From Escherichia coli (GTDB lineage: Bacteria; Pseudomonadota; Gammaproteobacteria; Enterobacterales; Enterobacteriaceae): DNA of 64,000 nucleotides. The position numbers were made by a program. Positions within the stretch are counted from its first letter, which is position 1. The number at the start of each line of letters is the position of its first letter. The stretch lies in NCBI RefSeq assembly GCF_002854065.1, contig NZ_CP024150.1, one strand, 5' to 3'. This document shows positions 51,601 through 54,600 of the stretch, piece after piece.

Positions 51601-54600
51601 GCAATTTTAAGCCAGATGGGGATGATTACATGGAGCTTACAAGACAGCATGAAACATTATCCCTTACATGCTCGAATAGTATCATTAGAGAGCTGGCCTT
51701 TGATGCTTACTATGCTGTTTCTCATGCATGCACAATGGGGACTGCAAATCGCGATGAAAAAGCCCCAGCCCGGAAAAAAGCTAAAGAGGCTTTAGATAAG
51801 TTTCAGGGATTTGCCAGCGAAGAACTACGTCGTGAGAAAGCTGCAATTGATGTAATAAGCGATAAGCGGACATTCTGGTCCTTTAGACGGCGAACAGCGC
51901 GATGATGGTGTCCGGAGCGCGGAAAATCTTGTTTAAAATATCTAGCGCGGTAGCAGAAAGAAAACGCATTAGCCATCAACTGTATCTCGTTACTGGCACA
52001 AGAATTAATTCATGTATTACAGCAAGTTAGCAATTATGCGCAGTAGAAGTTATCGTGGAGTTTTTTGATGGAAGAAGTAACCCCCATGGAAATAAAAATG
52101 AGGGGTACGCTATACTCAAGTAACTTGAAGATGCTGGATGATTGAATTCCAACCACTGTATATTTTAGGCCGCATACATGATATTCAAAACAATTTTTTC
52201 AGTAATACTTTTTCTTTCATTTTCTGCCGCAGCACAACCACAAAAGTTGGAGTGTGTCAGCCGAAAGGATGGTACGGTAAAAATAGCGCATATTTTCAGC
52301 AGTCCATCAAATAAGGGGCTGCTGGAGTTTGATAGTGCCATTTTTACGAAGGTGGATTCAAAAATAGAATCAGGAAATTTGAAAACCTTGTTTTCTACTC
52401 AACAAGAAGAGAGGCAAAAAGAAAGTCGCGTGATTTTTTTAACACTAAGAGACAGAGATGCCGAAATATTTGTCACAAGAAAAACTGGTAACAATGGTTA
52501 TGAAGATGGGATGATTTATGAATGTAATCCCTGAACATTTAATCCTTTTAGATATATTTAAATAAAATTTAGTCAAGAAAAGTGAACACATTTATGTTTC
52601 ATAAGGAGTTTGTATGCTGGGTACTTCATTTCAACAGTTTTCGATAGAGGCGCTTCTGGAAAGTGCTTCACTACGCAGTGGACTGACAGCATTGAATAAG
52701 TGTAAATATCATGATAAAGGCAGCTTTTATAATGCTTTTTTCAACTATCAATTGGTCTGGAACGTTTTTTAAAATTATTTATGTTGTTCAGTATATGATT
52801 GAAAATGATTTAAACAAACCAACATATAGTCATTTGAGAAAATTAGGTCATGATATAAGTACTTTACATCAAAATGCAGTAAATATTGCAATCAAATATG
52901 AGAAAAGAGACAAAGGCAAATGGGTCTTAAATGATGAGCAATCTGCAATATTAACAATGCTATCGGAATTCGGGAAAGAAACCAGGTATTATAATTTAAA
53001 TACTATTATTGGAGATAAAAAACTAATGAATGACCCTCTCGAGCAATGGAATTGTATTTTGGAGTATTGCTACTGGAAGTATACTTCAGCAACTAAAAGA
53101 GAGAGATTGAGTCAAGATGTAATCTCATGGGCTGAGAGAAATCGATTGTATGGTTTTACTAATGAATTTGGCCTCGATGGTCATATTATGACGTATGTAG
53201 ATCAGTATCTATTGAACTGGAAAGTAACCAAAATTTCGCCTTGCATTGCATGGGAAATAATTAGCATGTTGCAACCGTATTACTTTTTGCTAATGAGATT
53301 ACGAGATACTGTGCAGTTGAAGGAACAAGATAAAGGCATTAAAGACCCTTTAGTACCATACTTTCATGAGATTTTCCCATATTTCCTTTTAGATCGTGCA
53401 ACAGCGAAAAGACGTAGGAATTGGCTTGATTAGCCGCAATACTATTTCTAGACAGAATGAGTGTATGTCCAAGTCGGGCGAGGAATTAAACGAGAGGCGT
53501 AAAAAAGGCCACTTACGCGGCCTTTGTCTGTTGGTTCTTCGGCCTGGTGACATACCACGATAAACATCCCACAGCTACACTCATCAACATTCCGGATAAG
53601 CGATCATCTGCCTGAGAAAACAGGCAACCGACAAACATCGCAACAGGGAAAGGAAGAAGTAAACAGCGCCCCAAAATGCTCATAAAATCCATAAATCCTC
53701 CTTTGTTAAAGGGCAGGAAGCGGTGCACTTCCTGCCCTTAGTTACGTTTCCGCAGTCATCAATCGATGAACTGGCGAATCAGTTCCAGAACAGCAATCAG
53801 CGCGTTTGCAACGGCGACCACAGCCCTGAGAACGATGATTAACAGGTTAATCATCCGTTTCTCCAGATTGACACTGGAGGAAGTCACCGTTGCTTGCTCA
53901 TACATCGCCTGTCACAACGGCTCTCTCACAATGTTGGATGTAGAGTACCTTCCCCCTGCCAGAGCACTGAACACAGCACCACCTGTTTGTTCAGCCAGGA
54001 CTTTAATTCGTTCATACCCAGATAGCGCAGGGTTTAGAAGCAAGGGAGGCAACACTGTACAGCGCCAACACAAAGATTATACCGATGCACGCATAAAATT
54101 CATTTAAAGAAATGACCATTGACAGACAATCTGAAGTCAAACTAGACAACCGGTGTCTAGTGCCATAATATTATGGATGTTGGATGTAGAGTATCTTCCT
54201 CCAGTCAGAGCCACCAACTCAAAGCTGGAAAACACGAAAAAGCCCGATTACCAGTCGGGTTTTTTTGTGCCTGGCGTTCGGCTGTTCTTCCGTTTTTCCC
54301 CTTCATTTTAGGGTTTTTCTTTCTGTTTTTTTGTTGCGTCCAATGCCGCTGGTCGCGTTGACCAATAGCTCAATGTCGTTACCGGCATTTTCATAAATCC
54401 AATTTTTTCGGTAAGTTGAATCACACAAGATGATTAAAAAGCTGTCGGTTTTTTTGATGGATACAGTAGCGGCGGTGCGCTGCGTGAAATCTGATATTTT
54501 TCAGGAAGGACTGAGCGCGAGAATTGGCGAGGGGGCATCAAAATATTTTTTGGGCATGAATGGAAATTCCCCCTGTTCTGGGCATTAAATAAATCCCACT

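Follow-up and report, generated by a model that had tools for sequence, protein, structure and literature searches.

Two related loci lie about 50 kb apart on one Escherichia coli plasmid sequence, each pairing a gene for a small membrane peptide with a divergent small RNA. The question that the second of them raises is whether it is an intact type I toxin-antitoxin module, and whether it acts separately from the first. Within the window (the whole 64,000-nt stretch analysed, from contig NZ_CP024150.1), we read 53703-54267 as an intact DqlB/AgrB post-segregational killing module of IncX1 lineage on a mosaic E. coli plasmid, and put the probability of this explanation as a whole at roughly 85%. 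The system itself is not new, the DqlB/AgrB family having already been named, annotated and validated by experiment.

Identity and anatomy of the second module

Judged from its sequence, 53703-54267 is an intact second copy (module 2) of the already described and experimentally validated DqlB/AgrB type I toxin-antitoxin module (Table 1). The dqlB-2 peptide matched, across all of its residues (1-31 of 31), the NCBIfam model NF041473.1 ("DinQ-like type I toxin DqlB"; 72.8 bits, cut-off 35, E=1.4e-20) and scored below the cut-off of 30 against the DinQ model NF041472.1 (25.3 bits). The sRNA, agrB-2, matched the Rfam AgrB family RF02891 along the entire model (E=5.6e-8; 61.5 bits vs a gathering score of 40). 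Because the Rfam AgrB and NCBIfam DqlB E-values are so low, these features lie far beyond chance. The initial annotation had described a DinQ-like toxin/sRNA locus, and all of the features it gave are present, with both peptide and sRNA matching the curated DqlB and AgrB models; its coordinates (53759-54267) enclose the toxin gene and the sRNA but miss the conserved 3' hairpin of the toxin mRNA, and the module is better placed at 53703-54267. In the near-identical E. coli plasmid NZ_AP027791.1, which shows 4 differences across the first 57,288 nt of the window, both copies are annotated dqlB by RefSeq (PGAP). A tandem agrA and agrB pair in an arsR-gor intergenic region, as for dinQ, is absent; each module has a single sRNA and a plasmid context. 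Family membership, anatomy, complementarity and covariation of module 2 are established here, and toxicity of DqlB-2, its neutralisation by AgrB-2 pairing and killing on plasmid loss are to be expected by analogy with the pOXA-48 and pOXA-484 homologues.

Table 1. Features of the two dqlB/agrB modules, with positions in the window
Feature	Position	Strand	Description and basis
3' stem-loop (terminator-like), dqlB-2 mRNA	53709..53739	-	CGGAAACGTAA.TAAGGGC...GCCCTTTAACA; common to dqlB-1 and K-12 dinQ (alignment)
dqlB-2 coding sequence	53759..53854	-	31 aa, MINLLIIVLRAVVAVANALIAVLELIRQFID, plus stop; single hydrophobic helix toxin; NCBIfam match; identical DNA annotated dqlB WP_000609149.1 in NZ_AP027791.1
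SD GGAG (53861-53864) within hairpin 3:4	53861..53883	-	element 4 CUGGAG 53861-53866; element 3 CUUCCUCCAG 53874-53883; sequence reading and full-length fold
AgrB-2 target in dqlB-2 leader	53934..53965	-	includes element 2 (GGCAGGGGGAAGG); complementary to sRNA nt 1-32
Weak LexA-like 20-mer	53981..54000	.	ACCTGTTTGTTCAGCCAGGA (CTGT-N8-CCAG); doubles as a stem of SL2, a stem-loop in the leader; inferred transcript position about +72 to +91
Leader element 1	54040..54050	-	GCCUCCCUUGC; predicted partner of element 2 while the transcript is full-length and translationally inert
dqlB-2 promoter -10 box	54076..54081	-	TATAAT; same position kept in all family members inspected; -35 poor
agrB-2 promoter	54143-54171 (feature 54141..54171)	+	TAGACA-17-TAATAT; promoter scan
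AgrB-2 antitoxin sRNA	54180..54267	+	88 nt; about 20-nt single-stranded 5' tail, stem-loop with AGAGCCACCAACUC, intrinsic terminator; Rfam RF02891
dqlB-1 coding sequence	3837..3932	-	MINLLIIVLRAVVAVANAVIAILELIRELVD; first copy; RefSeq (PGAP) dqlB WP_001388983.1; alignment
AgrB-1 target in dqlB-1 leader	4005..4036	-	31 Watson-Crick pairs, 1 G.U and 1 bulge with agrB-1
AgrB-1 antitoxin sRNA	4239..4326	+	Rfam RF02891, 41.0 bits vs gathering score 40, E=0.0019

A longer reading frame on the minus strand (53759..53905), with the C-terminal end ...ANALIAVLELIRQFID, encloses the toxin gene. Translation most likely begins at the ATG at 53854 and gives a 31-aa product, since GGAG lies 6 nt upstream and the same start is used by the NCBIfam model and by RefSeq (PGAP). 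The leader, SD region and 3' hairpin of dqlB-2 align with K-12 dinQ; the hairpin has 12 pairs, is closed in the predicted folds and carries no strong T-run on the minus strand. Transcription probably starts at about 54069-54071; the dqlB-2 promoter did not pass a consensus promoter scan, having a good -10 box and no recognisable -35. As for a mok-like leader ORF, neither a 53-aa ORF at 53912-54073 nor the annotated 48-aa ORF of locus 1 is conserved in frame or length, and none of the upstream ORFs across 28 leaders was kept in either respect. Likewise set aside was a 113-aa plus-strand ORF (53766-54107) that runs antisense to the toxin and is not conserved.

The AgrB-2 RNA (fold energy -28.8 kcal/mol, z = -4.4) is encoded divergently on the strand opposite the toxin, 326 nt from the dqlB-2 start codon; 214 nt separate its gene from the target site (53965 to 54180), with no overlap between the two. 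The sequence GTTGGATGTAGAGTA occurs twice as a direct repeat (repeat family D10; 31 of 35 positions identical), one copy being the toxin-leader target (53931-53965) and the other the sRNA 5' end (54177-54211). The perfect palindrome CTAGACAACCGGTGTCTAG (54141-54159) overlaps the -35 of the agrB-2 promoter and is kept in IncX1 and IncX5 homologues; a search for a regulon found no other good copy within the window, where this is the sole perfect one.

Leader elements and a predicted translation switch

The dql family was defined in 2016, together with a four-element leader switch (PMC5066626). Four leader elements with mutually exclusive pairings (1:2, 2:3 and 3:4) were found here, and the folds follow the published model, with the SD predicted to be sequestered in 3:4. 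In the full-length minimum-free-energy fold, nt 22-33 of the dqlB-2 RNA are paired to the target region, in agreement with that model. By folding, the unpaired probability of the dqlB-2 SD was 0.01 in the full-length RNA vs 0.71 after an 80-nt 5' truncation, and that of the dqlB-1 SD reached 0.6 after 5' truncation; in both modules the SD re-closed in the folds when the target was blocked or the sRNA was co-folded. The thermodynamic switch model is rough and was used qualitatively, its positive control, dinQ +44, giving an SD accessibility of just 0.11-0.21; with that control only weakly reproduced, folding was dropped as a quantitative predictor of the processing site.

Cognate pairing and probable insulation of the two modules

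The first 32 nt of AgrB-2 form with 53934-53965 a duplex of 28 Watson-Crick pairs, 3 G.U pairs and 1 mismatch, with an energy of -57 to -60 kcal/mol. Paired positions number 31 of 32 in module 2 and 32 of 33 in module 1, and each cognate duplex contains an uninterrupted 23-bp helix, whereas the cross pairs contain 6-8 mismatches and their helices do not exceed 8 bp. Net predicted binding was -32.9 and -34.9 kcal/mol for the cognate pairs against -17.2 and -12.3 kcal/mol for the cross pairs; in K-12, the same calculation gave -37.7 kcal/mol for dinQ:agrB and -23.9 kcal/mol for dinQ:agrA, so that both cross pairs are predicted to be weaker than dinQ:agrA, a pair known not to protect.

The same pattern extended across the family, where the mean duplex energy was -54.8 kcal/mol for cognate and -33.2 kcal/mol for non-cognate pairs. 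Among 19 family members, 91.9% of intermolecular cells were paired, vs 73% in shuffles and 40-50% in slid controls, and 24 of the 32 intermolecular pairs covary, with changes on both sides. This covariation is independent evolutionary support for a pairing model that has been tested experimentally on just one homologue, although covariation between direct-repeat DNA copies could partly come from gene conversion rather than from selection on pairing alone.

The two modules might nonetheless cross-react by way of the 3' half that their pairing regions share, which would make them redundant copies rather than independent addiction systems. Element 2, on which the function of the target critically depends, is paired by the core CUUCCUCC(N2-4)CAGAGC, and both sRNAs keep this core; in co-folding the non-cognate sRNAs are still predicted to bind (net -12 to -17 kcal/mol) and, once bound, to close the SD. 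Against this, the mismatches and short helices leave the cross pairs below dinQ:agrA, and AgrA, with 25 of 31 positions complementary, does not counteract DinQ (PMC3567139). In the pOXA-48 agrB a 4-nt mismatch suffices to abolish protection and a compensatory change restores it (PMC12365149), and the co-resident modules on an IncX1 plasmid (L125) are likewise divergent. We consider redundancy through cross-reaction unlikely. Mutual non-neutralisation of modules 1 and 2 is plausible from the modelled energies, and non-cross-reaction, as the initial annotation had suggested, is what the published dinQ:agrA and pOXA-48 mismatch experiments lead us to expect; at high sRNA levels, some partial cross-protection through the common core may be possible according to the same models.

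Proposed mechanism

In the mechanism that we propose, the minus strand would be transcribed from the weak promoter into a dqlB-2 mRNA of about 370 nt. In the full-length RNA, element 1 would pair with element 2 and the SD would be locked in the 3:4 hairpin, preventing translation. Removal of the 5' end would free element 2 to pair with element 3, whereupon the RBS would open and the 31-aa membrane peptide DqlB could be made. The first 32 nt of the 88-nt AgrB RNA would pair with element 2 and the adjacent variable sequence. This would close the SD hairpin again and, if dinQ is a guide, probably trigger RNase III cleavage. As long as the plasmid is present the sRNA would keep the toxin off; once it is lost, the toxin mRNA presumably outlasts the sRNA and the cell would be killed. 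The dqlB-2 processing step, the relative RNA half-lives and the absence of cross-talk are parts of this scheme that we infer. Module 1 (3781-4326) would work likewise, but the variable 5' half of its pairing region carries another 'address', and for this reason the modules most likely act independently, both of one another and of the host chromosomal agrA/agrB.

LexA-like sites and the question of SOS control

The initial annotation had also held that neither locus has a canonical LexA box, unlike dinQ, at whose promoter LexA operators are found. For the promoters this was borne out: a search for CTGT-N8-ACAG with at most one mismatch found no LexA box at either dqlB promoter, and recovered, as positive controls, the two perfect umuD boxes in the window (17832 and 39299). 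Inside each leader, however, lies a weak LexA-like site with a one-mismatch core (53983-53998 in dqlB-2, 4054-4069 in dqlB-1), to which the absence does not extend.

These sites raise the alternative that the locus is an SOS-inducible toxin like dinQ, repressed by LexA through the leader site, and not primarily a plasmid addiction system. The CTGT-N8-CCAG core in the dqlB-2 leader belongs to a 20-mer of which an identical copy, upstream of dqlB on plasmid pTF2, is a predicted SOS box with a heterology index (HI) of 11.64, under the cut-off of 15 (PMC12211044). The site nevertheless stands some 70-90 nt downstream of the inferred start and not over the promoter. The SL2 stem shows compensatory changes between the loci (CUGAAC/GUUCAG vs CCGGAC/GUCUGG), and conservation of the 20-mer is for this reason explained by RNA structure. 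The peptide falls under the DinQ model cut-off (25.3 vs 30), induction of DqlB was not detected in proteomics (PMC12211044), and homologues act as addiction modules (PMC12365149, PMC12317039). SOS control through the leader site is thus very unlikely to be the main role of the locus.

Genomic context and origin of the two copies

The recurrence of the same module about 50 kb away, noted initially, was confirmed by a first module at 3781-4326 that is 78% identical to module 2. DqlB-2 and DqlB-1 differ at 5 of 31 residues, in keeping with the slightly different peptide that had been reported, and the different sRNA/target sequence is reflected in pairing regions that share just 23 of 32-33 positions. 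Copy 1 is flanked by an I-complex/IncK-like backbone (trbA-nuc region), and copy 2 by an IncX1 fragment; the 3.2-kb stretch that contains copy 2 is 98.5% identical to an IncX1 plasmid, and two identical IS3 copies in inverted orientation delimit the 11.3-kb segment that holds it. With regard to a defence-gene context, PADLOC returned nothing significant for the neighbouring proteins of 500, 240 and 118 aa.

The position of copy 2 between inverted IS3 copies and inside an IncX1-like stretch would also suit a decaying, non-functional passenger on an IS3-moved IncX1-derived fragment, and truncated or 'fused' derivatives of the family do occur elsewhere (e.g., L140, L141). Such decay is highly improbable here: every functional element is intact, from the ORF, SD and -10 box through the target and the four elements of the leader to the promoter of the sRNA, the sRNA itself and the two terminal hairpins; many IncX1 plasmids encode a peptide identical to this one (WP_000609149.1); and 31 of 32 sRNA positions continue to match the target. 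That the copies are parts of a larger duplicated element unrelated to a toxin-antitoxin function can practically be dismissed, since in the alignment of both loci that had been set beforehand as the check, by sensitive blastn of the 8-kb neighbourhoods, homology was confined to the modules (3781-4075/53702-54004 and 4254-4331/54195-54273) at 78% identity, and the flanks come from different backbones.

Relation to known systems

Among the systems closest to module 2, two received experimental support in 2025: the DqlB module of pOXA-48 (IncL), for which toxicity, ghost cells, rescue by agrB and an addiction assay were described (PMC12365149), and the IncX3 module of pOXA-484, for which toxicity and plasmid stabilisation were described (PMC12317039). 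Like module 2, both are plasmid-borne members of the DqlB NCBIfam family with the 31-aa peptide architecture; in both, a divergent trans-acting sRNA pairs over about 32-35 nt with a stretch of the toxin leader that precedes the RBS. Between the IncX3 peptide (L132) and DqlB-2, 4 of 31 residues differ. They differ from module 2 in the variable pairing address, the dqlB-2 target giving a predicted duplex energy of -28 to -30 kcal/mol with their sRNAs vs -57 kcal/mol with its cognate, and the pOXA-48-type sRNA (L137, L138) has, unlike AgrB-2, diverged so far that it falls below the Rfam AgrB gathering score. Set against pOXA-48 and pOXA-484, the present plasmid carries two modules of different lineages together.

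The K-12 dinQ-agrA/agrB system (PMC3567139, PMC5066626) resembles module 2 in its homologous leader, SD hairpin, 3' hairpin and four-element switch, and in a homologous sRNA of the same architecture, whose 23-bp helix is followed by an interruption at sRNA nt 24. It differs in being chromosomal, in the 27-aa length of DinQ and in having two tandem sRNAs rather than one; in the dql genes, transcription starts further upstream than in dinQ.

Among other systems, hok/sok of plasmid R1 is similar in its post-segregational killing, small membrane toxin, antisense RNA and inert full-length mRNA activated by processing. Sok antisense RNA is unstable. Sok is, however, encoded in cis and overlaps the leader of mok, through which translation is coupled, and the mRNA is activated by 3' processing, whereas the dql family has no conserved leader ORF and its sRNA gene does not overlap the target. 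The duplicated zor/orz modules are told apart by few nucleotides in the pairing region. The zorO-orzO and zorP-orzP pairs of E. coli O157, and tisB-istR-1, share with module 2 a neighbouring trans-encoded sRNA and a long toxin 5' UTR that needs processing for translation, although their peptides and RNAs are unrelated to it in sequence. Processing of the zorO 5' UTR has been described (PMC5397157).

Distribution and possible address classes

Matches to dqlB/agrB were found in 3,754 PLSDB records at megablast level and in >5,000 at blastn level, and the diverse agrB set used here was taken from PLSDB. A scan of genome contigs for the 14-mer AGAGCCACCAACTC gave, among the matches listed, mostly chance matches in unrelated phyla, with only the Citrobacter, E. 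albertii and Haemophilus-labelled contigs being usable. Conjugative resistance plasmids very commonly carry such modules, which annotation easily misses and which decide whether plasmid-curing strategies kill or spare the host. As the present plasmid carries two modules with different sRNA addresses, curing or anti-addiction with a single AgrB would not disarm it.

A wider reading, which we offer as tentative and rather doubtful, is that the hypervariable 5' half of the AgrB pairing region defines a limited number of 'address classes' that cross incompatibility groups, that multi-module plasmids keep different classes, and that orphan agrB genes serve anti-addiction. If this were true, agrB genes that occur as orphans or in 'fused' form on other plasmids and on chromosomes would disarm same-class dqlB genes of competing plasmids, sRNAs of IncI-gamma/IncK type could neutralise module 1 and those of IncX1/IncX5 type module 2, and an RNA-based network of cross-protection would exist between plasmids. 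Roughly 7-8 address classes are visible among the 19 modules compared.

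Module 2 as a member of the DqlB/AgrB family

Both parts of module 2, the second toxin/sRNA locus of DinQ-like kind proposed in the initial annotation, were recognised by family models: the 31-aa DqlB-2 peptide scored 72.8 bits against NCBIfam NF041473 ("DinQ-like type I toxin DqlB", cut-off 35) and stayed below the cut-off of the DinQ model (25.3 bits vs 30) in the NCBIfam profile comparison, and its sRNA, agrB-2, matched the Rfam AgrB model (see table). The only further RF02891 match within the window (4239-4326, 41 bits) is agrB-1, the sRNA of module 1. GGAG lies 6 nt 5' of the dqlB-2 ATG, and RefSeq (PGAP) labels both small genes, copy 1 and copy 2, dqlB in the E. 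coli plasmid NZ_AP027791.1. A longer, 48-aa reading of the dqlB-2 ORF was rejected as an annotation artefact of a kind known in the dql family (PMC5066626).

A 2016 study defined the dql (dinQ-like) family and its subgroups dqlA and dqlB (PMC5066626). In 2025 two groups showed that plasmid DqlB is toxic and rescued by agrB, that rescue is lost with a 4-nt mismatch and regained with a compensatory change, and that plasmid-cured cells are killed by the module, which also stabilises plasmids (PMC12365149; PMC12317039). The locus is confirmed and the initial annotation's reading of it is supported, module 2 being an ordinary member of this named, annotated and experimentally validated family. An 801-nt query matched 3,754 PLSDB records by megablast and >5,000 by blastn, and two or three family members per plasmid are common, as in the IncX1 plasmids L125 and L126.

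Coordinates of features in the window
Feature	Position	Strand	Details
dqlB-2 CDS	53759-53854	minus	product MINLLIIVLRAVVAVANALIAVLELIRQFID, 31 aa
dqlB-2 -10 box	54076-54081	minus	TATAAT, conserved
agrB-2 sRNA	54180-54267	plus	Rfam RF02891 (AgrB), whole model, 61.5 bits (gathering score 40)
agrB-2 promoter	54143-54171	plus	TAGACA-17-TAATAT
Perfect palindrome	54141-54159		CTAGACAACCGGTGTCTAG, overlapping -35 of agrB-2 promoter
umuD perfect LexA boxes	17832-17847 and 39299-39314		CTGTATATAAAAACAG
CTGT-N8-CCAG core inside leader	53983-53998 (dqlB-2) and 4054-4069 (dqlB-1)
Weak LexA-like 20-mers in leaders	53981-54000 (dqlB-2) and 4052-4071 (dqlB-1)
IS3 copies, inverted	43873-45136 and 56474-57739		identical apart from few bases between two repeat blocks

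Leader anatomy and predicted switch

The leader, Shine-Dalgarno (SD) region and 3' hairpin of dqlB-1 and dqlB-2 can be aligned with those of K-12 dinQ, and the conserved TATAAT places the inferred dqlB-2 transcription start near 54071. Because the leader stretch 53931-53965 recurs as the 5' end of agrB-2 (54177-54211), the sRNA is antisense to the dqlB-2 leader; its predicted fold comprises a free 5' tail, then a stem-loop, then a terminator.

A four-element leader switch was proposed in 2016, in which the primary transcript is inert, with elements 1:2 paired and 3:4 hiding the SD, 5' processing allows 2:3 to form and opens the SD, and AgrB binding to element 2 re-closes the SD and triggers RNase III cleavage (PMC5066626). 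In the fold of full-length dqlB-2 the target region, complementary to the sRNA 5' end, is paired with nt 1-33 and the SD is sequestered by CUCCAG/CUGGAG, and after an 80-nt 5' truncation element 2 pairs with element 3. The predicted probability of an unpaired SD was 0.01 at full length, 0.71 with the truncation (0.6 for truncated dqlB-1) and about 0 with the target blocked or the sRNA co-folded, values to be read qualitatively, as the dinQ +44 control gave no more than 0.11-0.21.

Two ORFs within the leaders, one of 53 aa in dqlB-2 (53912-54073, minus) and one of 48 aa in dqlB-1 ('hypothetical protein' WP_001346191.1, 3985-4131, minus), were conserved in neither frame nor length across 28 family leaders and are probably spurious gene calls.

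The agrB-2 promoter palindrome may be the operator through which a regulator acts on the antitoxin promoter. IncX1 homologues retain its GACA-N5-TGTC form, and the IncX5 homologue L130 has two copies of it; IncX4-type loci have another long palindrome at this position, and agrB-1 has none.

Pairing specificity of the two modules

The pairing region had been described as diverged between the modules, and the duplexes agree. The cognate pairs agrB-1:dqlB-1 (31 Watson-Crick, 1 G.U, 1 bulge) and agrB-2:dqlB-2 (28 Watson-Crick, 3 G.U, 1 mismatch) each contain an uninterrupted helix of 23 bp, a pattern like that of K-12 agrB:dinQ, whereas the cross pairs (23 Watson-Crick, 1-3 G.U, 6-8 mismatches and, in one pair, also a bulge) have helices of <=8 bp. 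Predicted net binding, computed on processed mRNAs, was -32.9 and -34.9 kcal/mol for the cognate pairs, -17.2 and -12.3 kcal/mol for the cross pairs, -37.7 kcal/mol for dinQ:agrB, -23.9 kcal/mol for dinQ:agrA and -6 to -9 kcal/mol for the K-12 sRNAs on the plasmid toxins. Since AgrA, with a complementarity of 25/31, fails to neutralise DinQ in vivo (PMC3567139), the still weaker cross pairs would be expected not to protect, although the conserved CUUCCUCC...CAGAGC core means that some cross-binding is still predicted. This explicit prediction, that co-resident modules would be mutually insulated, is the sole element that goes beyond the literature found.

Covariation was assessed on 19 target/sRNA pairs from three chromosomes and plasmids of eleven incompatibility types (IncX1, X3, X4, X5, I-gamma/K1, K2/Z, L/M, FII, FIB, U and the mosaic IncF-typed plasmid of the window). 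The target is hypervariable between conserved flanks, and each sRNA nevertheless tracks its own: 91.9% of intermolecular cells were paired, compared with 73% after shuffling and 40-50% in slid controls, and 24 of 32 pairs had changed on both sides. Mean duplex energy was -54.8 kcal/mol for cognate and -33.2 kcal/mol for non-cognate combinations, and the cognate sRNA ranked first on its target in 11 of the 19 modules and among the top four in all; the targets where it was not first mostly involved close relatives.

The sRNA:target duplex is interrupted at sRNA nt 24 (window 53942 / 54203 in module 2; alignment columns 15 and 76), a position shared by 14 of the 19 family members, and the break always comes after a perfect helix of 23 bp. 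Module 2 has an A:A mismatch there, dinQ/agrB an A:C mismatch and module 1 a bulged G. The break may arise because the sRNA stem and the mRNA elements are under different constraints, or it may play a part in RNase III cleavage.

LexA-like sites

No canonical LexA box was present at either dqlB promoter, as the initial annotation had stated, and the two umuD boxes of the window were recovered as positive controls. The weak 20-mer in the dqlB-2 leader has the same sequence as an SOS box predicted on plasmid pTF2 (HI 11.64; PMC12211044). LexA control is considered unlikely, because this 20-mer lies ~70-90 nt downstream of the inferred start and forms a leader stem bearing compensatory changes between the two loci. 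In both dqlB leaders the 20-mer falls on a conserved stem.

Plasmid context

The possibility that the two copies belong to a larger duplicated element was rejected, since homology is confined to the modules themselves (3781-4075 / 53702-54004 and 4254-4331 / 54195-54273, 78% identity) and none was found between the loci outside them. The window is the reverse complement of NZ_AP027791.1, a 110-kb mosaic plasmid typed IncFIA/IncFII with an I-type transfer system, with 4 differences over the first 57,288 nt. Copy 1 is flanked by a thermonuclease gene and a trbA-like gene, an arrangement also seen in IncK2/Z plasmids. The 3.2 kb around copy 2 (51300-54525) share 98.5% identity with an IncX1 plasmid and form part of an 11.3-kb segment between two inverted IS3 copies. 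Besides the IncX1-derived dqlB-2 fragment, this segment contains sodC, a 3'-5' exonuclease, a RelE/ParE-NadS pair and a resolvase, and its structure is reminiscent of a composite transposon or an invertible segment.

The neighbours of module 2, of 500 aa (54651-56153, minus) and 240 aa (52711-53433, plus), are annotated as hypothetical and had no PADLOC match; at this position beside dqlB, IncX1 plasmids carry cargo that varies and includes nucleotidyltransferase/SLATT and HEPN genes. Elsewhere in the window, two diverged leading-region/SOS gene sets (umuDC, ardA, psiB/psiA; repeat families D1, D5, D7, D11 and D14) lie ~21-24 kb apart, consistent with fusion of two plasmid backbones. A complete plasmid-borne myo-inositol catabolism (iol) cluster with an ABC transporter occupies ~19830-32888 (L002 1-12171), and a pseudogene annotated 'cholera enterotoxin subunit B' (L003 5631-6008), heat-labile-enterotoxin-like and with an internal stop, lies close to type IV pilus genes.

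Fused modules and additional sRNA genes

In four 'fused' modules among the comparison sequences (L125 5738-6111, L126 32371-32744, L140 675-1046 and L141 784-1144) the agrB gene lies exactly at the leader target position, so that the toxin lacks its usual promoter and 5' leader; among them are a gene annotated 'dinQ' on IncX1, a copy on IncFII and, on IncK2/Z, one whose DqlB is truncated to 27 aa. These look like deletions by recombination between two direct-repeat copies, leaving an sRNA gene and a promoterless toxin. Extra agrB-like genes with no adjoining matching target, candidate orphan antitoxins, occur in L139 (~1416-1500), L127 (32070-32152), L015 and L016, the last two being tandem arrays of 3 sRNAs on the Citrobacter werkmanii chromosome; the 5' part of the L139 sRNA is identical to that of agrB-1, and it lies beside a module of different specificity.
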